Positions 10,414-52,326 of a stretch of 64,000 nucleotides of DNA are shown piece after piece (position 1 is the first letter of the stretch; each line of letters begins with the position of its first letter). The notes below the pieces were generated by a model that made no database searches, was not told the origin of the DNA, and was given only the letters and a program-made list of their open reading frames with translations. The translations under genes were made by a program, and so were the position numbers. Source of the DNA: a virus (Duplodnaviria; Caudoviricetes); the IMG/VR virus record IMGVR_UViG_2799112954_000004, positions 10,459 through 74,458 of that record. One strand, written 5' to 3'.

Positions 10414-10836
10414 TTACGTTCTATCGTCCGGATTCGGCTCATTGAGTTTGAGAGAGAACGAACCATACCCTTTGAGAAATTCTCCGAACTGAGTGCAGGA
10501 GAGATAGATGCACTTATACACATCTCCCGAATAGCTTGTTGATATTTTCAGCAAGTCCGGCTTTTTTAGCTCTTGACAGAACGAAGAGAACTTGGTCATA
10601 AAGTCCGAAGTATCTTTTGCCACGAGATGGAGAGGTAGCGTAATGTCTCTCGCTTCATACCGAGGCTGTTTGTTCACAACACGTTTTCCGTGCTCCAGTC
10701 TTGATTTGCTCTCGACAACGCTCTTCATGGGAGGTGGAGCAATCAAAGCGGTTATTCCAGTTTGTTCCAGGCTGATGCCCCACGTAGTGAAAGCGTCTTG
10801 GCCATTGATATATAATACTCCTTTAGGCATAATCAA
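10414..10836 (-). CDS. Distal tail (Dit-like) protein
   Basis: 140 aa immediately after tape measure; LYINGQDAFTTWGISL, YEARDITLPLHL. Confidence 0.7.
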   Translation of the reverse strand: MIMPKGVLYINGQDAFTTWGISLEQTGITALIAPPPMKSVVESKSRLEHGKRVVNKQPRYEARDITLPLHLVAKDTSDFMTKFSSFCQELKKPDLLKISTSYSGDVYKCIYLSCTQFGEFLKGYGSFSLKLNEPNPDDRT

Positions 10837-22131: not shown

Positions 22132-22162
22132 TAAGAAACATATATGAGCAATGAAAAATTGC

Positions 22163-23074: not shown

Positions 23075-23368
23075 TTACAAACAGATTAAACGGTTCTTTG
23101 TTTCTGCATACTTCATAGCTCTCTCGATTCCGTCTTTCTGGCCGTTGAGTTTTGCGATTACTCTTTCTACCTTCTCAACCTCTGCCAGGTCCTTAGCGAA
23201 CAATTCTGCACCGCACTTGACGGTGTTCATTCGCTTATTGAGGGAACGGATCTGCTGCTTTACCTTACGGCTGTTGATGTACTGACCAGCGTCTATGAAC
23301 GCGAACAGCTTGTTGGCCATAGAGTCGGAACTGGTCTGCTTGATTTGCAGTAACTCTTTTGTTTCCAT
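23075..23368 (-). CDS. Hypothetical coiled-coil protein
   Basis: METKELLQIKQ...; start preceded by leader motif and AAAAGCA. Confidence 0.7.
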   Translation of the reverse strand: METKELLQIKQTSSDSMANKLFAFIDAGQYINSRKVKQQIRSLNKRMNTVKCGAELFAKDLAEVEKVERVIAKLNGQKDGIERAMKYAETKNRLICL

Positions 23369-23397
23369 TGCTTTTAACTTTATGCGTTTCTTATTTA

Positions 23398-23667
23398 CTA
23401 CTTCCAAGGATAATCCATCTCGAACTTCATAGCAACCGTCTCGCTCTTCTTGAACGATACGCTGCAAATCCCGTAATTCTTATCGCTACGATAGATGATT
23501 TTGCCGAGGCCCTTAACAAAGGCTCTGTGGCCAACGCTCATAAGGTAATCAATAGCGTCTCTCACAGTTCCGAAAGACTTGACGACCGATACCTCTGTCT
23601 CCTCCATCTTCTTAGCCTCGTTATTGAGGTGGGAGACTGTTCTGACGATTTTCACTTCCTTTTCCAT
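23398..23667 (-). CDS. Hypothetical protein
   Basis: 89 aa, first gene after class I promoter. Confidence 0.7.
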   Translation of the reverse strand: MEKEVKIVRTVSHLNNEAKKMEETEVSVVKSFGTVRDAIDYLMSVGHRAFVKGLGKIIYRSDKNYGICSVSFKKSETVAMKFEMDYPWK

Positions 23668-23684: not shown

Positions 23685-23736
23685 ATGTTTCTTATTTACA
23701 AGTGTAAAGGTAGTTATTTTCACCGATTTATGCAAA
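23685..23736 (-). promoter_or_regulatory. Class I promoter/operator/leader unit
   Basis: TTTG-20 nt-TACCTTTA then TGTAAATAAGAAACAT; operator variant at 23712-23724. Confidence 0.75.
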
Positions 23737-24057: not shown

Positions 24058-25791
24058 CTAATCTACTTCGGATAATCCAACATAATCGTGGAGATAATTC
24101 AACTGGGGCAGATCATTAAGCCGCAGAAAGCCGTTCCAGTGAGTTCCAAGAAGCATTTCCTTTCCAAAGTCCAAAGATGCAATGTAATTCATCGGAGTAA
24201 CATCACCCATCTTTTTCAGCCTGGAGGTGACGATATTGTATTGCTCCTTTGTTATCACTTTGTCATCATAACGCATTTTGGCGAGGTCTTGTATCTCCGA
24301 GGTCTTAGCACAGAAACCATATTTGGCCCAGCAATAGCCTCCGACATCGATATTGGCTTTCACCCTTACTTCATCAACACCCATATTCTCATACTCAGAG
24401 AACAGGCTTCTGAAGATGGCTTTTGAAATTCCCTTCCCCTGCAGTTCCTCTGGGAGGTCAAACAACGCGTGGTCGACAATAATGCGATTACCCTCCTTAA
24501 AAAAGACTCTGTTCAGTTCAACGTCTTCGTCATCAGAACTCAGCCCTTTATAATTCATGGAGACTGAACCGTTATCCAAGAACGAAATGGTCTTTCCACT
24601 CCAATAAATCTCGTGCTTGTCTCCAATCTTCTCCATACTCTCATCGAAGCCTTTGAGGTTGAAGCCTTTCATAGCTGAATGGTTATACCTATCAGCATCA
24701 AATCGGTTGAAGTTGAGCGAATGAAGCTCCTCAACAAGCTCTTTCGACACAAGGAACGTTCTCGCTTTCTCCTTCTCCATCTCTTCCTTATACACCTTCT
24801 TGTTGTCTCTAAGGAAATATGGGAGGGTGCCCTTTCTCTCCGAGGCTTTGATAGTATCCTCGTTTTTGACCAGCCATTGGGAAAACCTCCTTGGATAGCC
24901 TTTGGGAGCGTTGACGCTTGTAGTGCTATCACTCCAAAACTCTTCTTCCGTTTTGAGCACTGGGATGCAGTAACAAAAGCAATTAGGGTGCCAACCCGTG
25001 AACTTGAAATCTTTCGGGTAAACGCCTTGCAGGTCGTCACAGATGTCCTGCCGAGGATGGGACTTGCTGAGCTTTATGCGGTAACCTACCACAAAATCCA
25101 GTTTCTTCCAACGCTCCTGCTCTGCTGTTCTGTAAGCCATATTGATCTCCGTCCGGGCAAGTCGGATGGAGTTATACTCACAGTTATGGCAATCGGTTGC
25201 CTTGCCATACTTCTCCTTATAGTCTTTCTTAAGACTCTCGAAGTTCTGAAGATATTTGCTCAGACGCTTACTGAGGGTAACAGCACTAATTCCTTTCTCA
25301 ATGCCACTCGACAAAGCATTTTCAAGCTCAGTCTTATACTCGCCTGACTGCTTCCAAAGTTTTTCAGAGAGGTTCATTCCTTTATCCCTCCTTCTTTGGA
25401 ATGCTTTCAGCGCGTCGCTGTTCGGGTCGTAATAGACCTTATGCTTCTTGCCTCCGGCCTTACTGCCATAATACTTCAGCATCTTATTCACAAGCAGGTC
25501 TTGGAGCAAGTTGCTCTCCTTCCATTCCTGCGATGTGCCAGTGTATATGACGGCTCGGATATTGCTGACAAACGCACTTCTCAGCTTATTCACAGCGTCT
25601 GCGGTCTGAGGATAATTCGAGAACGAAAACGGCGTGGCTTGGGACCCATCGTAATCAGTCCTTAGAGCGATTTGCGACGCTTCCAAATTCAGCATATCGT
25701 AAATTTGCTGCACCATGATGGAGTATTTGTTTATCCTACTCCGTAGCGCAGCGTATGCCTTTTGCTGGTTAGGTGTTCTGGGTTTGGCCAT
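24058..25791 (-). CDS. MuF/SPP1 gp7-like minor head protein with C-terminal GNAT-like extension
   Basis: RLARTEINMAY, CDDLQGVYPK, GWHPNCFC (MuF); C-terminal LPEELQGKGISKAIF...ANIDVGGYCWAKYGF (acetyl-CoA-binding motif A-like). Confidence 0.85.
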   Translation of the reverse strand: MAKPRTPNQQKAYAALRSRINKYSIMVQQIYDMLNLEASQIALRTDYDGSQATPFSFSNYPQTADAVNKLRSAFVSNIRAVIYTGTSQEWKESNLLQDLLVNKMLKYYGSKAGGKKHKVYYDPNSDALKAFQRRRDKGMNLSEKLWKQSGEYKTELENALSSGIEKGISAVTLSKRLSKYLQNFESLKKDYKEKYGKATDCHNCEYNSIRLARTEINMAYRTAEQERWKKLDFVVGYRIKLSKSHPRQDICDDLQGVYPKDFKFTGWHPNCFCYCIPVLKTEEEFWSDSTTSVNAPKGYPRRFSQWLVKNEDTIKASERKGTLPYFLRDNKKVYKEEMEKEKARTFLVSKELVEELHSLNFNRFDADRYNHSAMKGFNLKGFDESMEKIGDKHEIYWSGKTISFLDNGSVSMNYKGLSSDDEDVELNRVFFKEGNRIIVDHALFDLPEELQGKGISKAIFRSLFSEYENMGVDEVRVKANIDVGGYCWAKYGFCAKTSEIQDLAKMRYDDKVITKEQYNIVTSRLKKMGDVTPMNYIASLDFGKEMLLGTHWNGFLRLNDLPQLNYLHDYVGLSEVD

Positions 25792-26288: not shown

Positions 26289-26494
26289 ATCTCTACCTTT
26301 GATTCTACTGCGTAACAAATACTCACGACCATTCCGAACTCGTTTGTGCACTCTCTACGGACAAACTCGATGGACGAGACAGGTAATCCAGTCTCGTCCT
26401 CAAACTGATGGAGCTGTTCGGAAATACTTTTCTCCAGCAGGAATTTCTTGTCTCTAATCTCTGAAACGTCCATACTACTCGGCTCCTTCATCAA
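26285..26494 (-). CDS. Hypothetical protein
   Basis: 69 aa directly after portal. Confidence 0.55.
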   Translation of the reverse strand: MMKEPSSMDVSEIRDKKFLLEKSISEQLHQFEDETGLPVSSIEFVRRECTNEFGMVVSICYAVESKVEI

Positions 26495-27893
26495 AGACGT
26501 TATTCATTCTCGTAGCAGTGGACGACGCCTCCTCTTGCTGAATTTGCTTCAGCGTCTCTTCCGGATCATCGCTTTCTCCAAATGCCTTGATGGAGTCAAG
26601 CTGACTCATAACAGCCTTACCGCCATTGCCGGCAGTCAACGTTTCGATGCGTCTTTTTTTATCGTTCTGAATGAATGGAGTGATGACGTTCTCGATATCC
26701 ACGTTATCGACCTCCTTAGCCCACTTCACATTCATCACTTTCAAAAACGCCTTGACAACATTATTCTCTCGCTCAAAGAACTCAAGCCATGGACCCGACT
26801 CATCACCGATTCTCAGATGGGCATCCATCAGCATGGTCATTCTCGCATCGTAACCGATATTGCCGAGCGCTTTCATATTCTCGAAACTGATGTCCGGCAT
26901 TTGCGACTGCATGAAAAACAGCTTCAACAGCGTATCAACCTGGTACTTCAAAGCATCTATCGCCTGATTCCAAGAAACGTACTCAATCTTACCGCCATTG
27001 GAGAGCTGCCAAACACGCTTTGTCTCGCCTTTCTTCTCGTTGCCCTGCAATGCTCCAGTAACAGCAAGGATAGGCGAAGCGTTATACGCCAAGATATTGC
27101 TCTCTCTCGATAAGCCATATTCAATCTCCTCACGCAACACAGAAAGGCCATCATAGACTGGCCGAGGGCGCCAATTATACACACCTGGAATCTTCAAAAT
27201 GATGATGTCCTCACCTCCTTCCGGAGTCTCATCGACCCATCCACCCTCGTTTCCATCATTCTTCCACTTGAAATGCTTGTTCTCAGAGAACGTCTCGAAG
27301 AATGTGTACTCTGTGTCCTTAACCTTACGCTTGTACTCATAGGACATTCCTATCATATCGCCAAGCTCGTCAAGCAACGGATACAGCTTCACGCCGTCCA
27401 TGGGAGAGAAAGTCTTGCACTTCAGCTTATACATCGACGGAAAGCCATAGAGGTCATTGGGCTTCTCCACGACATACCACAAGGTGAATATCTCGCAAGA
27501 CGCATAGTAAGCAAGCCCACGCTTGATGTTCTCGCTGTCGATATGAGCATACTTATAAATCTTCTCGATAGCTGCGGCAATCTGCTGGCGGGTCTCATTA
27601 CCGTCAATGTTTGAATACACTCGCTTGACTGGTATGGAAAACGTGAACTCAGTAATACGCTTGGAGATAAGTTTCTCCAAACCTACGGTTATTCTTGCCG
27701 ATGGCTCTTTGACTCCATCGCTTCTGATCTTATCCTCCAGCCTTTGCTTATCAGTAAGAATGTGATGAAACTTCGGCTCGTAGTCCTGCAATAGCACCGA
27801 CCATGACGGAACGGTTACGGATTTTTCTTTCAGTGAGCTAATGCGGTCAATAATCGACCTATCTAAGCTAAGAATATCATTAATATCTTCCAT
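26475..27893 (-). CDS. Portal protein (SPP1 gp6-like)
   Basis: ~472 aa between terminase and MuF; SQMPDISFENMKALGNIGYDAR pattern. Confidence 0.88.
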   Translation of the reverse strand: MEDINDILSLDRSIIDRISSLKEKSVTVPSWSVLLQDYEPKFHHILTDKQRLEDKIRSDGVKEPSARITVGLEKLISKRITEFTFSIPVKRVYSNIDGNETRQQIAAAIEKIYKYAHIDSENIKRGLAYYASCEIFTLWYVVEKPNDLYGFPSMYKLKCKTFSPMDGVKLYPLLDELGDMIGMSYEYKRKVKDTEYTFFETFSENKHFKWKNDGNEGGWVDETPEGGEDIIILKIPGVYNWRPRPVYDGLSVLREEIEYGLSRESNILAYNASPILAVTGALQGNEKKGETKRVWQLSNGGKIEYVSWNQAIDALKYQVDTLLKLFFMQSQMPDISFENMKALGNIGYDARMTMLMDAHLRIGDESGPWLEFFERENNVVKAFLKVMNVKWAKEVDNVDIENVITPFIQNDKKRRIETLTAGNGGKAVMSQLDSIKAFGESDDPEETLKQIQQEEASSTATRMNNVFDEGAE

Positions 27894-27914
27894 CTTTATG
27901 CTTTTTATTTTGCA

Positions 27915-27947
27915 CAAAGATAGGCAAAAGTATTTGAAAGACAAATG
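27915..27947 (-). promoter_or_regulatory. Class II promoter (portal operon)
   Basis: TTTG-19 nt-TATCTTTG; TATTTGAAAGACAAAT at 27931. Confidence 0.7.
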
Positions 27948-28061
27948 TTTTTAGCAACTTTTTTGCCGCCAACGAAACATTTTGCACTTTCTACTAACTT
28001 TTGCCTTCAAAAGTAAATAAGAAACTGCCTCTGCAGAAAAAACTATTTTCGACTGATGGAG

Positions 28062-28568
28062 CTAACCTCTATAATTCTCCATTATCCATGTCAGCATTTT
28101 GTTCTGGAGCCCTCTGTCAAGCTCAGTGAAAAACACATTGAAGTCACGTCCGCACGTCTCGAACTTCTGCCAAAGGTGATGTTCCAATCCAGTGCCTGCA
28201 AACACCTTGTCTATCCAGTAAGACGGAGAGTTGAACGTGAACATAATGTACTTCCTCATAGCATCCTTCTCTCTGTCGAGCTTATCAACAGCAATCGGTT
28301 TCACCTGCCGCCACCCTTTTGTGACTCCACGGATGATAAGGTTCGTCTCCAGCTCATAGTCCGGATGGTAGCCAATATGGTTCGGGTGCCCGTAGGCATC
28401 ATTCATCGAACGAAAGATATTGCTCGGGTTGGCGAACGGTCTTCTGTCATAGTCAAGGATACCGCCCTTAGTCAGCACCAATCCCTCGTCCTGCAGAGCC
28501 TTCAAAACTCCGTCGGGGTTTTCCTTTGAGCCTCTGCACCACACTTTGATTACTTTTTCTTCTTCCAT
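28062..28568 (-). CDS. Hypothetical accessory protein
   Basis: 168 aa. Confidence 0.7.
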   Translation of the reverse strand: MEEEKVIKVWCRGSKENPDGVLKALQDEGLVLTKGGILDYDRRPFANPSNIFRSMNDAYGHPNHIGYHPDYELETNLIIRGVTKGWRQVKPIAVDKLDREKDAMRKYIMFTFNSPSYWIDKVFAGTGLEHHLWQKFETCGRDFNVFFTELDRGLQNKMLTWIMENYRG

Positions 28569-29562: not shown

Positions 29563-29614
29563 ATGTTTCTTATTTACATATGTAAAGGTACTGAATTTCA
29601 CTGAGTTACGCAAT
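29563..29614 (-). promoter_or_regulatory. Class I promoter/operator/leader unit
   Basis: TACCTTTACA, ACTGAATTTCACT (29590-29602), 16/16 leader motif at 29563-29578. Confidence 0.75.
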
Positions 29615-30035: not shown

Positions 30036-30434
30036 TTACAGCTTGTTTACCATCCAGTCTATCTCCTCGTCTGAGAGAGCGATACCGTTAGCCCGCTTCG
30101 TCTTGATGATGAAAGCGTAATCAAACTCCTGCTCGATCACAGCATCGAGGTTCCCTTTGTGATGAGCTACGAGGACTTGCTCAGCGAACTCACGCTTTTG
30201 GTTCTGGTAATCTGCTGCGAGAGCTTCAATATCTGACTCCAGCTTAGCCACCTTCTTGTTGAGGGCCGCTTTCTTATCTTCCATAGCCTTCATGTAGGGC
30301 GTTCCCAACATCACCGGGATGTCATTCTTGATATTCTCGCACATCGTATCGATGGTCTCAGTTCCAAACTCGTCTACCAAATAGCTGTCAGACTTCAACG
30401 ACTTCAACAACTCGATTTCCTTAGCTTTTTCCAT
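30036..30434 (-). CDS. Hypothetical accessory protein
   Basis: 132 aa behind class I promoter. Confidence 0.75.
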   Translation of the reverse strand: MEKAKEIELLKSLKSDSYLVDEFGTETIDTMCENIKNDIPVMLGTPYMKAMEDKKAALNKKVAKLESDIEALAADYQNQKREFAEQVLVAHHKGNLDAVIEQEFDYAFIIKTKRANGIALSDEEIDWMVNKL

Positions 30435-30460
30435 TGCTTCTAACCTTTAAGATGATTAAT

Positions 30461-30512
30461 TTGTTTCTTGTTTACATATGTAAAGGTAGTGATTTTCACT
30501 TGGTTGCGCAAA
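30461..30512 (-). promoter_or_regulatory. Class I promoter/operator/leader unit
   Basis: AGTGATTTTCACT at 30488-30500; leader 14/16. Confidence 0.75.
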
Positions 30513-30552: not shown

Positions 30553-30786
30553 TTAACGTGGATAGCGTTCAAGAAGCAAGGTCTTTGCCTTTTCCAATTC
30601 CAGCCTGGTATCGATACCTATCTGATGATAGAAGTCTCCATTTCCATTCAGCACCTCGCTCGCAATCTGTATGGATCTGCGTTCCTCATTCGTGAACCCT
30701 ATCCTAAACGTCTTGAAGATGGAGAGGGCTTTTTGCCACTCCCCACTTCTCATATAAGCTACCGCCTTTGAAGTCTTTGTCTCCAT
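30553..30786 (-). CDS. Hypothetical protein
   Basis: 77 aa coupled to ardC stop. Confidence 0.7.
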   Translation of the reverse strand: METKTSKAVAYMRSGEWQKALSIFKTFRIGFTNEERRSIQIASEVLNGNGDFYHQIGIDTRLELEKAKTLLLERYPR

Positions 30787-31787
30787 TATGCTTCCTGCTT
30801 AACTTCAACACCAACTCCAATCTTCTCGAGTATCAGCTTGGATGCCTTGGAAACGTCCGACATTACCGATACGATGAAGTTAGGCTCTTTCTTCAGAACC
30901 TTGCACCAGCCTTCAAGATACTTGGCGTTATCGTCTCTGATGCAAGCGTCGAAGCCTAACACTGATCCACAAAGTGCTGCAGTAAGCTCTGCCACGAGCT
31001 CTTCCTTTGCGTACTCTGCTTGCGAATACTTGCCACCTCCGATTCTTTTCAGCAAACTCTCATGGCCAGTGCTGTGAGCCATCTCGTGGATGAGCGTATC
31101 GTAGAACCTCTGACCGGACAGGTAAACCTCCTGCTCTGTATCTCCGACCTTGAACTGAGTCTTCATCGGGACCACAATCTCGAATGAACGGCACTTGTAA
31201 TACGCCTCGTCAGACAACTCCTGATACTTGATCGGGCAGTACCAACGCTGCATCGCCAGCATATCATCGATTTCAGCGTTCTCATACATTCCGAAGGTGT
31301 CCTTGGCTATCTCACGCTTGGTGAACTGTCCTTTCAGCTTCTCCACTTTCTTTGGCGCAACCTCTGCCAAATTGGTCTGGTCGAGATTGAACACGAGATA
31401 GCTCTTAAGGAACGGAGAATAGCTGTACTTCTTCTGCTCGTCTCTTCCCATAGCCTCATAGTCTTCCTCGTCAACTCGCTTACCATCCTCGTTCTTGTAG
31501 CTCGCTTTCCAAAACACTACGGGGAACGACTTGGAGCCTTTGTTCACACGGCCACCCAACTTGTTGATTTGCTTGATGGTAGCATACACCGGCAACTCAA
31601 ACTTATTCATCATCGTGTTCACCAGCAGGAAGAAATCGTTCATGCCCGAATAGTGACCACCGTTTATGTTCATCGGAGAGCCGCCGAATGATGATGTCAC
31701 CCAAGGCTGCTTCCAGTCTGTGCCTACAGCTTTCATGCGCTCAATCATAAGATCGCAGAACTTCTCGATAACTAAATCTGTTTTCAT
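30786..31787 (-). CDS. ardC: ArdC-like anti-restriction ssDNA-binding protein with zincin-like domain
   Basis: WKQPW, YSGMND, YATIKQINKLGGRVNKGSKS, VFNLDQT; HEMAHSTGH...YAKEELVAE. Confidence 0.9.
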   Translation of the reverse strand: MKTDLVIEKFCDLMIERMKAVGTDWKQPWVTSSFGGSPMNINGGHYSGMNDFFLLVNTMMNKFELPVYATIKQINKLGGRVNKGSKSFPVVFWKASYKNEDGKRVDEEDYEAMGRDEQKKYSYSPFLKSYLVFNLDQTNLAEVAPKKVEKLKGQFTKREIAKDTFGMYENAEIDDMLAMQRWYCPIKYQELSDEAYYKCRSFEIVVPMKTQFKVGDTEQEVYLSGQRFYDTLIHEMAHSTGHESLLKRIGGGKYSQAEYAKEELVAELTAALCGSVLGFDACIRDDNAKYLEGWCKVLKKEPNFIVSVMSDVSKASKLILEKIGVGVEVKQEA

Positions 31788-31817
31788 ACTTAGCCTCCTA
31801 TTGCTTTTAACTTTAAT

Positions 31818-31869
31818 ATGTTTCTTATTTACGTATGTAAAGTTAGTAATATTCAGCGTATTACGCAAA
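31818..31869 (-). promoter_or_regulatory. Class I promoter/operator/leader unit
   Basis: TTTG-20 nt-TAACTTTA; leader 15/16 at 31818-31832. Confidence 0.7.
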
Positions 31870-31923: not shown

Positions 31924-32025
31924 AAAAAAATGTGCTGGCTACTTTCACAAGCAAACCAGCACACCATCTACAAGTGGGTTAGCCAAAAGCAATGAAGGCA
32001 TCGCCCAACTGTAAATAAGAAACAT
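31924..32025 (-). ncRNA. Candidate trans-acting antisense sRNA (~100 nt)
   Basis: Consensus -7 box TATCTTTG (32035-32028), 5' end ATGTTTCTTATTTACA, internal hairpin, terminator TGTGCTGG/CCAGCACA + T7. Confidence 0.75.
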
Positions 32026-32079
32026 TGCAAAGATAAATATATTATCTCAATAGACCTAAACAATTTAGAAGTTTTTGCA

Positions 32080-33615
32080 TTATAAAGCGTCATTCGCTAT
32101 CTGTTGTAACTCACGCTCATTGGTGGAGTATGGGTAGAACGTGTTGGCCACAGCATCCATCTTATCTGGTGAGCGCTTTATCTTCTCCTTTATGTCATCC
32201 TTGGACTCTATGATAATCTTGCCATTGCTTTGGAACTTCCATTTCGTGGACGTGACCTCCTCCATAAACTGATCATCGGGAGGCACCGCTGGCTGGAAAT
32301 TATTCTTCGGGTTAAGCCACTCTCTCATTTTCCAGTGGAGATAGGCTCGCATATTAGCAAACTCGTATTGGCCAGTGAGGTCATGCAGATTGGCTGCGCT
32401 CTCAGAGAACTTACAAGAGATGGCGTTATCGCAGCCAAGCTCTATCAACCTGGAATAGACTCCAGCTCCCTCTCCGATGGTATCTATGAAAGCACGCGCC
32501 TTGCTATTATAGAGATATACTCTCACCATGCCAGCGACCAGCATGTGGTCTGCCTTTCCTCCCGATTGGTGCACCTTGAACTCCGGAATGTAGTTGCCGT
32601 AGCGAGGGCAGATAACGGATGAGTCTCGACCCATACCAGCAACATCGACACCGAGCCTTGCAGACTTTCTCGGCTTGAAGTTCTGAGCATGAAGCACTTT
32701 CCACCTCTCGTTGGCAAGCTCAACCCACTCGTATGGGATGAGGACGTCCTCAGATACTCTCGGGAACATACCTCGCACTTTCACTCGGAACAGATCATCC
32801 GGACGATACACGCCTCCTTCCCATTTGAAGTCTCCTTGCCCCTCATCGTAATCTGACGGCTCTATCTTCTCGCACCACGTCTCGACCTTATCCTTTACCC
32901 ATTCATAGTCCACCTGGCCCTTGATAACGACTTTCTTCTTCACGACGTTCTCAGCATTCAGACTGTCAAGCCTAAACTTGTTGAAACGAGTGGAGCGCAT
33001 AGCATTAGCCGCATATCCCATGGTAACGTTAGGGTTGAACACAAGAAGCAACCTCGAATTGTTCTGCAAGTTGCCCTCGATAGCGTCATAGATGGTCTGT
33101 GAGATACCCGTTGCCTCGGTCACAACGAACATAATGTTGGAAGCATGGAGACCCGACCACGCCTCGGTGTTGTCATCATCAGCCTTGAAGCCAGTGAGGA
33201 ACCATTCCTCATAGTCGGTACGAATATCGTTTCCGACCAAACGGCCAGGGCAGGAGAATGGAAAACGTATCTTTGCCGACCGAATGAGTCTGCGGATCTC
33301 CGGCGTCATAATATTCTTCACCTGACGGTCCGTAGGGGCAGTCATAGCAACCTTGGTGTTCTCTACCATCACTCCGTTCTCAAAACGTGGGGTGAGGTAT
33401 AGAAAACACAAAGCACAGCAAGCTGCAACGAAATCCTTACCTCTTGCTGTGCCACTTGCCACTGCGGTCATCTTATTGTTCTGGACTGACTCGACGATGG
33501 CTTGCTGCTCTTTATCAAGTCTTACTCCAAGCACATCTCTACAAAACGCATTCCAATCCTTTCTCCAATATTCGACCGCCTTATTTATCAGCTCCTGCCT
33601 TTCCTTTTTGGTCAT
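32080..33615 (-). CDS. terL: Terminase large subunit
   Basis: Walker A-like ASGTARGKDF, FVVTEATG (Walker B), GVDVAGMGRDSS nuclease, RSPDKMDAV. Confidence 0.93.
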   Translation of the reverse strand: MTKKERQELINKAVEYWRKDWNAFCRDVLGVRLDKEQQAIVESVQNNKMTAVASGTARGKDFVAACCALCFLYLTPRFENGVMVENTKVAMTAPTDRQVKNIMTPEIRRLIRSAKIRFPFSCPGRLVGNDIRTDYEEWFLTGFKADDDNTEAWSGLHASNIMFVVTEATGISQTIYDAIEGNLQNNSRLLLVFNPNVTMGYAANAMRSTRFNKFRLDSLNAENVVKKKVVIKGQVDYEWVKDKVETWCEKIEPSDYDEGQGDFKWEGGVYRPDDLFRVKVRGMFPRVSEDVLIPYEWVELANERWKVLHAQNFKPRKSARLGVDVAGMGRDSSVICPRYGNYIPEFKVHQSGGKADHMLVAGMVRVYLYNSKARAFIDTIGEGAGVYSRLIELGCDNAISCKFSESAANLHDLTGQYEFANMRAYLHWKMREWLNPKNNFQPAVPPDDQFMEEVTSTKWKFQSNGKIIIESKDDIKEKIKRSPDKMDAVANTFYPYSTNERELQQIANDAL

Positions 33616-34063
33616 CTTTCTCGTATCCGTCAACCATGGACTGGAGGGCACTTACCCATTCATCACTATCAACTTTCACATCTTGTCTGTCACGCCAAAT
33701 GTCCGGGCGACGATTCTTCAGCCAAAAGATAGCAGCCGTAGTGTCTGGCGGTATCGGGTCCTCAGTGGTCTCCACCTTTGCTGGTTTCTGATTGCCGTTC
33801 TCGTCCATCTCCACAATAATCTTCTTATGCTTGATGACGATATTACCAACAGCACGATTATAGAGGGACTTTGTCACCTTTGCGTCTGCAACGGATTTTC
33901 CCTCTTTCAGCGAGTCCAACAATGAGCTGTATTTCTTTTTCCATCTATGGAACGTTCTTACAGTTATTCCAAGGATGTCTGCTATCTGCTCGTCTGTCTT
34001 TCCTTCTACGGCGAGTGCCCACACAATATGGTCATGAGTCTTTGGATTATACGTTGTTGCCAT
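33581..34063 (-). CDS. terS: Terminase small subunit
   Basis: N-terminal HTH (TDEQIADILGITVRTFHRWKK), PPDTTAAIFWLKNRRPDIWRD. Confidence 0.9.
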   Translation of the reverse strand: MATTYNPKTHDHIVWALAVEGKTDEQIADILGITVRTFHRWKKKYSSLLDSLKEGKSVADAKVTKSLYNRAVGNIVIKHKKIIVEMDENGNQKPAKVETTEDPIPPDTTAAIFWLKNRRPDIWRDRQDVKVDSDEWVSALQSMVDGYEKDDQKGKAGADK

Positions 34064-42638: not shown

Positions 42639-43130
42639 TTATTTATGTTCAACTTGCTTGACTATATTCTCAACTGGTACCTGACAGAGGATCCATTCAC
42701 GTCCGTCTTTCAGATAGCTGATGTCGTATACCACGCAGTAGTCTGTGAATCGGACTTCCTTACTGAGCACCGTTCCCTCGCAGATTACCTTTCCGTTCTT
42801 GGCGACCTTAACCTTATCGCCCTTCTTGAACTCGCTCGTGAAGTAGCAGTAATCAACCAGCCAGGGCTTCTCACCGTACATATACCAATCAAGGCGTACG
42901 CAGCTATCGCTACCGTCGAGGCAGGAGCCGAACAATGAGCTTCCACCCATCTCCGCATTGAAATACTTCGCTCTACTGCTCACTGAGTAGCTTCTGGAAG
43001 TCTCCGAGTAGTGCACGTTGAAAGATTCCTCCTTGAATACTACCACGCCTTTAAGAGGCTCGTTGTCACCTGGGACCATGTTGTACTGCTCCATCTTCTG
43101 ACAGAACTCCGAAAAACTCATCTGTTTCAT
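42639..43130 (-). CDS. Hypothetical protein
   Basis: 163 aa; SRSYSVSSRAKYF...SLFGSCLDGSD; first gene behind class I promoter. Confidence 0.75.
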   Translation of the reverse strand: MKQMSFSEFCQKMEQYNMVPGDNEPLKGVVVFKEESFNVHYSETSRSYSVSSRAKYFNAEMGGSSLFGSCLDGSDSCVRLDWYMYGEKPWLVDYCYFTSEFKKGDKVKVAKNGKVICEGTVLSKEVRFTDYCVVYDISYLKDGREWILCQVPVENIVKQVEHK

Positions 43131-43146
43131 TGCTTTAATCTTTAAT

Positions 43147-43198
43147 ATGTTTCTTATTTACAAGTGTAAAGGTACTGAATTTCACTGAGTTACGCAAG
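43147..43198 (-). promoter_or_regulatory. Class I promoter/operator/leader unit (PRTRC operon)
   Basis: ACTGAATTTCACT at 43174-43186; leader 16/16 at 43147-43162. Confidence 0.75.
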
Positions 43199-43639: not shown

Positions 43640-43691
43640 ATGTTTCTTATTTACAATAGTAAAGGTAGTGAATTTCACTGAATTACGCAAA
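43640..43691 (-). promoter_or_regulatory. Class I promoter/operator/leader unit
   Basis: Perfect AGTGAATTTCACT at 43667-43679; leader 16/16 at 43640-43655. Confidence 0.78.
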
Positions 43692-51479: not shown

Positions 51480-52250
51480 TTACTTATCGGAATCGATGTC
51501 ATAGACTCGGTCCAGTGCCAGCTCTCCCTCGCCTCTTTCAAGATAGAACTTCTTGATGGCGTCAGAGATGCGCATTACCGTAGCCTTGCGGTAGATCTCA
51601 CCGACTGGCAGGCCTTTCTTTGAGAGGTCGAAGTTACCGGGCTTTCGCTGAGAGACGATGTTGTGCTCCTTAGCTGCCTTGCTTGCGTCATCCCACTTAT
51701 CGTAGCCTTCACAAGCTGAGCTGAGCCACATTGAGATTCTGCGGATAGCTTGGTCGTCGCTGACCTGCTCGAAGTATTCCTCGATGATGCAGAACTTAGC
51801 GAACACCTGCTGCGACTTGTCAGCGATGGCTTCCTCAATCTGCTGGCGGTTGAACTCGGTGCCGATGGTGAAGTGGAACTGAGGCTTCTCGGCCGGCTCT
51901 GACTTCTCATCCTCTTCTACTGGCTCTGCTTCTGTCTCGACTTCTATTTCGGTCTCGACTTCAGCATTTGACTCGGGCTTTACTTCGGTCTCGCTCTCAG
52001 CTTCGTTATCAGCCTCTACCTGGGAATTGCTCTCTTCCTCGGCCGGAACGATGGCTTCAGCAACTGGTTCTGCGGCTGCTTCCATCTCCTCGCGCTCAGA
52101 CTTCTTGCGGTAGTAGGCAATCACAGCGTTAAGACTGCGGCGACCGTGGACGCGCTCATACTCAGTGAATAAACTCTCGTTGGCTTTCAGAGCCTCATTG
52201 AATGACAAACTCTCGAAATTGCTCTTGATCTGTGACTTCAGACTTTCCAT
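51480..52250 (-). CDS. Hypothetical acidic accessory protein
   Basis: 256 aa with Glu-rich linker, behind class I promoter. Confidence 0.75.
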   Translation of the reverse strand: MESLKSQIKSNFESLSFNEALKANESLFTEYERVHGRRSLNAVIAYYRKKSEREEMEAAAEPVAEAIVPAEEESNSQVEADNEAESETEVKPESNAEVETEIEVETEAEPVEEDEKSEPAEKPQFHFTIGTEFNRQQIEEAIADKSQQVFAKFCIIEEYFEQVSDDQAIRRISMWLSSACEGYDKWDDASKAAKEHNIVSQRKPGNFDLSKKGLPVGEIYRKATVMRISDAIKKFYLERGEGELALDRVYDIDSDK

Positions 52251-52274
52251 TGCTTTTGAATTTTAGTGAATAAT

Positions 52275-52326
52275 ATGTTTCTTATTTACAAGTGTAAAGG
52301 TAGTGATTTTCACTGGGTTACGCAAA
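52275..52326 (-). promoter_or_regulatory. Class I promoter/operator/leader unit
   Basis: AGTGATTTTCACT at 52302-52314; leader 16/16 at 52275-52290. Confidence 0.78.

Follow-up and report, generated by a model that had tools for sequence, protein, structure and literature searches.

What is encoded in the interval between terL and ardC of a rumen Bacteroidales phage, and why is its sequence mirrored at the starts of genes dispersed over the same genome? The locus lies in a 64,000-nucleotide (nt) stretch of a caudoviricete record from IMG/VR (IMGVR_UViG_2799112954_000004, positions 10,459 to 74,458), referred to here as the window. An initial annotation had read the interval as a small RNA (sRNA) gene of ~100 nt bracketed by a −7 promoter box and an intrinsic terminator, and had described two stretches of this RNA, seed 1 and seed 2, as antisense to a shared 16-nt leader and to the start regions of a set of accessory genes, respectively. 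From comparison with related phages, we conclude that the unit probably encodes an antisense sRNA that acts in trans and keeps down the translation of an accessory regulon whose members are tagged at their start codons. The unit is located between terL and ardC, directly 3' of terL, and has the following parts.

31924 to 32026, minus strand: candidate sRNA transcript of ~100 nt, with the −7 box and the terminator as borders and a 5' end uncertain by a few nt
32028 to 32035, minus strand: −7 promoter box TATCTTTG, matching the Bacteroidota consensus TAnnTTTG and followed by CA and then seed 1
32010 to 32025, minus strand: seed 1, ATGTTTCTTATTTACA, at the RNA 5' end, reverse complement of the class I leader described below
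31965 to 32017, minus strand: hairpin 1, with seed 2 in its apical loop, as given concordantly by the minimum free energy (MFE) and centroid structures of RNAfold
31983 to 31994, minus strand: seed 2, CATTGCTTTTGG, antisense to the start-codon tag AAAAGCAATG
31924 to 31964, minus strand: intrinsic terminator by predicted fold, a long hairpin with a GUGA (GNRA) tetraloop and U7

Both borders proposed at first for the noncoding unit were found, the box at 32035-32028 and the hairpin with its U7 tract at 31964-31924, the latter not being listed by a simple terminator scan. The candidate sRNA folds with an MFE of −38.1 kcal/mol (z score of −4.85), which none of 200 shuffled sequences equaled. As had been claimed, seed 2 (31994-31983) falls in a predicted loop; RNAfold assigns it to the apical loop of hairpin 1, which consists of the 12 nt UUCAUUGCUUUU. 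The first ~9 nt of seed 1 are predicted to be unpaired, and the remainder lies within the hairpin 1 stem. Searches of the window and four relatives with Rfam covariance models (GibS, FopS, C4, or any other family) returned nothing at the gathering score and, at E values up to 10, chance matches only. A coding reading of the unit was rejected, as its 41-amino-acid open reading frame (ORF; 31968-32093) is without conservation.

The 16-nt leader to which seed 1 is antisense, TGTAAATAAGAAACAT, occurs exactly on the minus strand at 23685, 29563, 43147, 43640, and 52275, with partial copies at 31818 (15/16), 30461 (14/16), and 23386-23398 (13 contiguous nt). Its sole exact plus-strand copy is 32010-32025, inside the sRNA unit. 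Allowing up to 3 mismatches, 12 matches were counted against 0.71 expected, and 0 of 100 shuffles reached 12. At no more than 1 mismatch, the 16-mer was confined to the phage contig of a 2.85-Mb assembly, where an extra 15/16 copy lies just beyond the end of the window. The initial description of seed 1 as the exact reverse complement of a dispersed leader therefore held in every coordinate and count, far above chance. The repeat proved to be larger than the 16-mer, comprising a promoter module of ~52 bp plus leader, arranged as a −33 TTTG, a 20-nt palindromic spacer, the −7 box TACCTTTA, 4 nt, and the 16-mer. Conservation ends abruptly after the 16-mer and returns at the start region. These cassettes, designated class I, are given below with the associated seed 2 sites.

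23685 to 23736, minus strand: class I promoter and leader (16/16), heading genes of 89, 97, and 302 amino acids
23665 to 23676, minus strand: seed 2 target CCAAAAGCAATG, 12 nt, covering the ATG at 23667
23366 to 23398, minus strand: internal gene start without a promoter, with the 13-nt leader-like match at 23386-23398 and a 10-nt seed 2 target at the ATG at 23368
29563 to 29614, minus strand: class I cassette (16/16) heading a 319-amino-acid gene, without a seed 2 site
30429 to 30512, minus strand: class I cassette (14/16) with start region GAAGCAATGGAA, an 8-nt seed 2 match, and the ATG at 30434
31800 to 31869, minus strand: class I cassette (15/16) heading ardC, with AAAAGCAAT (9 nt) 12 nt upstream of the ATG at 31787
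43126 to 43198, minus strand: class I cassette (16/16) with an 11-nt seed 2 target at the ATG at 43130, heading the PRTRC operon
43640 to 43691, minus strand: class I cassette (16/16) heading a DUF2958 gene, without a seed 2 site
52248 to 52326, minus strand: class I cassette (16/16) with an 11-nt seed 2 target at the ATG at 52250 of a 256-amino-acid gene

Duplex energies of a seed 1 oligonucleotide with 497 candidate ATG regions placed the nine best regions, without exception, at class I cassette genes, with values of −16 to −20 kcal/mol versus a median of −6.7. These nine regions correspond to 8 distinct starts, and two pairs among them are alternative ATGs of one gene. A further leader-like copy (13/16; 28012-28027, plus strand) precedes a plus-strand ORF of 157 amino acids (28056-28529) that is almost fully overlapped by a 168-amino-acid ORF on the minus strand (28062-28568).

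All seven class I promoters carry an AGTGA-N3-TCACT-type palindrome in the 20-nt spacer, adjoining the −7 box (e.g., 23713-23732 and 43668-43680), and relatives have ACTCA-N7-TGAGT at the same place. This palindrome looks like an operator for a dimeric repressor of the same regulon. Because such a palindrome is typical of an operator, it also favors an explanation of the whole arrangement at the DNA level, by which the 16-mer and the start tag would be operator-like protein sites and 32010-32025 would be one more of them, inverted, at a promoter start. Indeed, the 16-mer adjoins the −7 box in the cassettes and the sRNA unit alike, and the conserved block is unbroken from −33 to +16. Protein sites of this kind accord less well with the position of the tag, which sits on start codons, including those of internal genes without a promoter.

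The leader copy before ardC and seed 1 also form a 15/16 inverted repeat (31818-31833 and 32010-32025) flanking a 176-bp segment with the ardC promoter, which a recombinase might flip as a switch. This inverted repeat is real, and the segment size and repeat length resemble those of Bacteroides invertible promoters. Against such a switch, seven further copies lie in direct orientation, between which a recombinase would delete; most relatives have the unit without a long inverted repeat; and no flipped form was present in contigs, where joints to the opposite strand proved to be fold-back contigs, which are present elsewhere in the same libraries. An invertible promoter was rejected on these three grounds and is, in our estimate, extremely unlikely. 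The RNA-library data consist of Logan contigs of bovine-gut RNA libraries, which are assembled and fragmentary and come without ends, strand, or level. In one study, the joints 31878/31929 and 31464/31527, both of the fold-back kind, were met repeatedly among the RNA-library contigs and look like library artefacts.

For seed 2, exact complements were located at 23676-23665 (12 nt), 52258-52248 (11 nt), 43136-43126 (11 nt), and 23375-23366 (10 nt), ending on the ATGs at 23667, 52250, 43130, and 23368, respectively, with a further 8 nt at the 30434 start; the five start regions and the lengths initially reported for them stand. At up to 1 mismatch, the tag AAAGCAATGRAA gave 10 matches versus 1.13 expected, and 0 of 100 shuffles reached 10. 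With the seed 2 loop alone, cassette starts ranked 1, 2, 4, 5, and 7 of the 497 candidate ATG regions. Exact-complement lengths were used in preference to a whole-sequence RNAduplex matrix, in which long spurious duplexes dominate the energies. Outside the phage contig, 10- and 11-nt seed complements were about as frequent as expected by chance and pointed to no convincing host target. One 13-nt seed 2 complement, CCAAAAGCAATGA, was seen on a host contig (G000:C16:38231, plus strand) and may be in another mobile element. Within the window, TAAGAAACATATATGAGCAATGAAAAA (22132-22158, plus strand) joins a leader fragment to a start tag of the type found in relatives (G-type, see below) before a 43-amino-acid ORF, opposite to the strand of the other genes.

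A blastn search of the sRNA region against deposited phages yielded no match, and the TerL of the window is at most 30% identical to that of any deposited phage, leaving no cultured relative phage for comparison. A DNA search across 60 related genomes gave a single weak partial match only. TerL relatives comprised 80 IMG/VR loci (66-73% identity) plus one near-identical contig, and 38 loci from GTDB genomes. A homologous unit was present directly 3' of terL in 83 of the 115 loci with sufficient downstream sequence, amounting to 29 distinct sequences. Its carriers are phages and prophages of Prevotella, Bacteroides, Parabacteroides, and others, including prophages of three strains in culture, Prevotella vespertina A2879, Prevotella sp. 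KH2C16, and Parabacteroides faecalis AGMB00274, in which the unit lies at L175:11474-11560, L177:11489-11572, and L195:11526-11614, respectively. In distant TerL relatives (Chitinophaga, Parapedobacter, Marinifilaceae, and others), no unit was found, and the next structural gene follows terL directly. Pairs of tRNA genes were also noted a few kilobases upstream of terL in relatives (L175:4742-4893, L019:6680-6899, and L014:7045-7266).

The units of relatives measure 70-90 nt, too short for a meaningful ORF, and share a covarying first hairpin, a single-stranded UUUCAUUGCUCUU stretch, and a GNRA-capped terminator. The TAnnTTTG −7 box is invariant, at the same place, in 23 of 23 aligned family members; often this box contains the terL stop codon, or terL runs into the −33 TTTG. 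In the family alignment, TTCATTGCTCTT is nearly invariant, with a conserved CATTGCT core. RNAalifold on this alignment showed that 8 of 10 terminator pairs have changes on both sides that preserve pairing. In 18 distinct sequences, hairpin 1 lies upstream of the seed with outer GAAA/UUUC pairs and lineage-dependent inner stems (ACAC/GUGU, ACUG/CAGU, or UCG/CGA). Its arms, which MAFFT misaligned between lineages, were counted by anchoring; 136 of 144 cells pair in register, compared with 71-84 when one arm is slid by 1-3 nt. Fold z scores of seven members range from −4.9 to −7.5, and the CAUUGCU seed lies in a linker or loop in 6 of the 7 folds, being partly paired in L049. At one locus (L048:11560-11643), the terminator hairpin reads as the exact reverse complement of its usual form (GCGCCGACTTTCACAAGCCAGCGC), a flip that is either real or an assembly artefact.

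The window unit shares the position after terL, the −7 box, the CAUUGCU seed, and the GNRA-capped terminator with this family. The GAAAN...NUUUC type of hairpin 1, which ends in the seed, is absent from it and from L049; both have a free 5' anti-leader instead, and the window seed occupies the apical loop of a different hairpin. The window unit is thus a variant architecture of the terL-downstream family.

Could the unit be a structured RNA without a repressor function? It might be only the 3' untranslated region and terminator of terL, with the complementarity a by-product of recombination, or it might stabilize or activate mRNAs or be sponged by them. That it lies directly after terL and shares the terL terminator suits such readings, as do the promoter-leader-start modules before different genes in different relatives, which suggest modular shuffling, and the pairing at the extreme 5' end of an mRNA, which could act on decay rather than on translation. 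Yet an invariant −7 box separates the terL stop from the RNA in every lineage, with diverged flanks, and hairpin 1, upstream of the terminator, covaries. From the covarying hairpin 1, the exposed conserved linker, and the invariant promoter box, it follows that a plain terL terminator explains hairpin 2 only. Moreover, the seed is kept unpaired and lies over the AUG, as is classical for repression, and seed and tags changed together, as detailed below. We consider an RNA of this nonrepressing kind unlikely.

In relatives, the linker UUUUCAUUGCUCUUAUGU is an exact mirror, over up to 18 nt, of ACATAAGAGCAATGAAAA, which marks numerous small genes at their start codons, whether these genes follow the repeated promoter or lie within operons. 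The exact 12-mer AAGAGCAATGAA has 3-5 coding-strand copies in each of five phage records, with 0 for a reversed control. An opposite-strand copy lies at the sRNA gene in 4 of the 5 records, and G065 has a second; the one record without it, G061 (L082), lacks it because its seed differs. In L171, 10 sites of at least 11 nt occur in 21 kb, all at ATGs. Tagged genes of relatives (L171, L175, and L179) encode ArdA, DUF2958, DUF3560, DUF4942, a stand-alone MutS domain I, and an HNH/NUMOD4 endonuclease; the target genes of the window encode ArdC, DUF2958, the PRTRC ubiquitin-like set, and several proteins of unknown function. The slot between terL and the portal gene is filled differently from phage to phage, behind a common promoter-leader-start module.

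The window sRNA reads CAUUGCUUUU, with a U, where most relatives read CAUUGCUCUU, with a C. The start tags occur in corresponding G and A types, distributed as follows.

Window phage contig (98 kb, coding strand): sRNA with U, 0 G-type tags, 4 A-type tags (exact 11 nt)
Five relatives, G061 to G065: sRNA with C, 25 G-type tags, 3 A-type tags
G066 (L208): sRNA with U, 4 G-type tags, 2 A-type tags

The difference between the window and the C-type phages is significant (Fisher P = 0.001), with the limit that sites within one phage are not fully independent. The U of G066 pairs with both tags, as G·U or as A-U, and is therefore the intermediate predicted by RNA-RNA pairing rather than by protein recognition of DNA. 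By this comparison, sRNA and tags of the window have changed together, C to U in the one and G to A in the other. A pattern search for the U variant gave 7 matches, among which only L208 and the near-identical contig are family members. Searched with the seeds of other lineages, the window gave a single site of 11 nt or more, for L049. A Paraprevotella metagenome-assembled genome (L167:3820-3880) has two seeds in tandem, CATTGCTTTTTT and CATTGCTCTTGGG, on a short contig whose only visible cassette has an A-type tag; this seed pair was found in no further phage.

Equivalents of seed 1 pair with the leaders of their own phages over 14 nt in L168 (GUUUUCUUUUGACA versus leader TGTCAAAAGAAAAC), 12 nt in L049, 9-10 nt in L082, and 9 nt in L027. 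In group B, a 7-nt equivalent lies in the hairpin 1 loop, and none is present in group A or in L175 and L177. A long seed 1 tends to go with a shorter seed 2 (8 nt in L168) and conversely, which suggests that the two seeds share the load. The complementary segments lie at lineage-dependent distances from their two promoters, 3 and 11 nt in L168, 23 and 4 nt in L049, and 10 and 19 nt in L082, which argues against a fixed operator. Together with the two hairpins with compensatory changes and exposed seed of the unit, and with the G·U intermediate of G066, this makes a DNA-level element highly unlikely.

The initial annotation had staked its reading on seed and leader varying together in related phages; they do covary, including through the G·U intermediate. 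A noncoding RNA gene with seeds antisense to the leader and starts of a regulon is thus retained, on the evidence of conservation and covariation. Across the family, however, seed 2, and not the 16-mer, is the ancient and universal part. The 16-nt seed 1 is a lineage-specific addition, and the equivalents of 9-14 nt in other lineages are independent ones. Membership of the regulon in relatives appears to be defined by the start-codon tag, with or without a class I promoter.

With exposed stretches that mirror the leader and the start tag, one RNA probably switches off translation of the accessory genes together. In the mechanism we propose, the sRNA would be made from its own host-type promoter and end at the GNRA-capped intrinsic terminator. 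Its exposed stretch (UUCAUUGCUUUU in the window, UUUCAUUGCUCUU in relatives) would pair across the start codon of mRNAs tagged AARAGCAAUGRA, so that seed 2 covers the AUG and the A-rich region upstream and blocks ribosome loading, much as for GibS. In the lineage of the window, the 5'-terminal seed 1, up to 16 nt long, would pair additionally with the first nucleotides of all seven class I transcripts, adding affinity and recruiting cassettes without the tag. The outcome would be coordinated translational repression of an anti-defence-type regulon that includes ArdC, DUF2958, PRTRC, and genes of unknown function. Transcription of the unit and repression as the direction of its effect are what we infer.

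Several points weigh against this mechanism. In the assembled contigs that made up the RNA-library data, neither a transcript nor its 5' or 3' end was observed. The −33 box of the sRNA promoter is weak in the window, and hairpin 1 is predicted to tie up about half of seed 1. The leader may also owe part of its conservation to recent duplication of whole promoter cassettes. On the target side, the cassettes at 29563 and 43640 have no seed 2 site, the seed 2 match of ardC is off the start codon, and duplex energies of seed 2 with its GC-rich flanks do not single out the cassettes. Some tag variants of relatives (GAACAATG) mismatch their own sRNA. Finally, the two seeds follow each other in the opposite order to their targets, which makes joint pairing to one mRNA topologically awkward; simultaneous pairing is therefore doubtful, and independent use of the two seeds is more likely.

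As for when the sRNA would act, expression of the targets at entry and their shutoff as the RNA accumulates is plausible from gene content, as speculation. Read-through from terL was also suggested in the initial annotation as a source of the RNA. We also considered that the sRNA might serve as translational immunity of a prophage, silencing early and anti-defence genes that bear the tag, both in the resident phage and in incoming relatives marked in the same way, a role that we regard as possible but doubtful. Equally tentative is its corollary that lineages changing seed and tags together might form separate immunity groups, comparable to the c4 heteroimmunity of P1 and P7 but extended to entire regulons, among which the window, with its U, A-type tags, and private 16-nt seed, would be one.

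The element that carries the unit is a tailed phage of rumen Bacteroidales, with all genes of the window on the minus strand. The following were assigned.

33581 to 34063, minus strand: terS (PHROGs)
32080 to 33651, minus strand: terL (phrog_2, E = 2.9e-30)
30786 to 31787, minus strand: ardC, with ArdcN and MPTase-PolyVal (zincin peptidase) domains
26475 to 27944, minus strand: portal gene (PHROGs)
24058 to 25791, minus strand: MuF-like head protein gene (PHROGs)

The MuF-like head protein has a C-terminal extension, and its top PHROG match is phrog_16625, "Bxa ADP-ribosyl transferase."

Base-pairing sRNAs of the Bacteroidota offer the closest points of reference. In B. thetaiotaomicron, a single-stranded seed of GibS was shown experimentally to pair at translation initiation regions and to block initiation, in a host without Hfq or ProQ in which long seeds seem to be needed (PMC7366714). 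The window unit has the features of such an RNA, namely its own −7 box, a terminator without coding potential, and an accessible seed complementary to start regions. It resembles GibS and FopS in the host-type promoter, the intrinsic terminator, and the extended single-stranded seed that spans start codons; the phylum lacks Hfq and ProQ, and initiation in it is not led by a Shine-Dalgarno sequence (PMC7366714). It differs from them in having no sequence or structure homology and in being phage encoded, with targets that are the phage's own genes bearing a copied tag.

The c4 RNA is processed from the operon of its own target. In P1 and P7, short complementary stretches borne on its loops bind around the ribosome binding site of the ant mRNA, and seed differences between P1 and P7 define heteroimmunity (Citron and Schuster 1990, as summarized in PMC12197685). 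Those differences parallel the seed and tag variants described here. In contrast to c4, which acts on the single ant mRNA, RNAs of the window type have their own promoter and 5-20 dispersed targets; the window unit itself has its own −7 box and terminator, targets spread over 29 kb, and no match to the Rfam C4 model. In phage T4, the RegA protein represses translation of a set of early mRNAs through their initiation regions. As with RegA, one phage product would shut off many mRNAs; here, the agent would be an RNA, with specificity given by base pairs.

Repeated start tags are also known from Cluster K mycobacteriophages, in which start-associated sequences (SAS), asymmetric repeats of ~13 bp, abut the starts of 11-19 nonstructural genes (PMC3203893). 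These belong to different gene families, and SAS lie in one orientation, with a single complementary-strand copy in several phages (PMC3203893). SAS contain a Shine-Dalgarno core, and neither a function nor an RNA partner has been assigned to them (Pope et al. 2011, PMC3203893). The tags described here likewise abut starts in one orientation with a single opposite copy, an analogy only, with no sequence relation. They differ in that the opposite-strand copy lies within a promoter-to-terminator RNA unit with structural covariation.

Among plasmids, the CUP elements of pKM101 are repeated regulatory sequences of an establishment regulon. The EGeRS of pLS20 and p576 are conserved regulatory units repeated before ardC and other establishment and anti-defence operons (PMC8708921), and plasmid leading regions are enriched in anti-defence genes (PMC11541004). 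The phage gene set resembles these leading-region anti-defence or "establishment" genes (PMC11541004, PMC8708921). EGeRS differ in belonging to conjugative plasmids, in their protein (Reg) or unknown control without an sRNA, and in their longer units (400-600 bp for EGeRS1). The element studied here is not a plasmid leading region but a phage with terS, terL, portal, and head genes; a protein repressor was not searched for.

The trans-acting sRNAs known to be encoded by phages come from a small number of enterobacterial, Vibrio, and Pseudomonas phages, and neither Bacteroid* nor Prevotella is mentioned in a 2025 review of sRNAs in phages, which covers VpdS, PreS, sar, OOP, c4, and others. A phage antisense sRNA as such is already known; what is unusual here is the control of a regulon whose members are set apart by copies of a start-codon tag and a leader, and to this family the window adds the U/A covariant and a 16-nt second seed. 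Gut and rumen Bacteroidales prophages appear to mark dozens of accessory genes, many of them of anti-restriction or "establishment" type, with a start tag that one sRNA would read. If true, this would be a simple and portable rule for membership in a phage regulon, and it would point to RNA as a solution to the old mycobacteriophage puzzle of start-associated sequences. For Bacteroides and Prevotella, which lack Hfq and have few regulatory tools, it would also provide a translational off-switch that is both natural and programmable.

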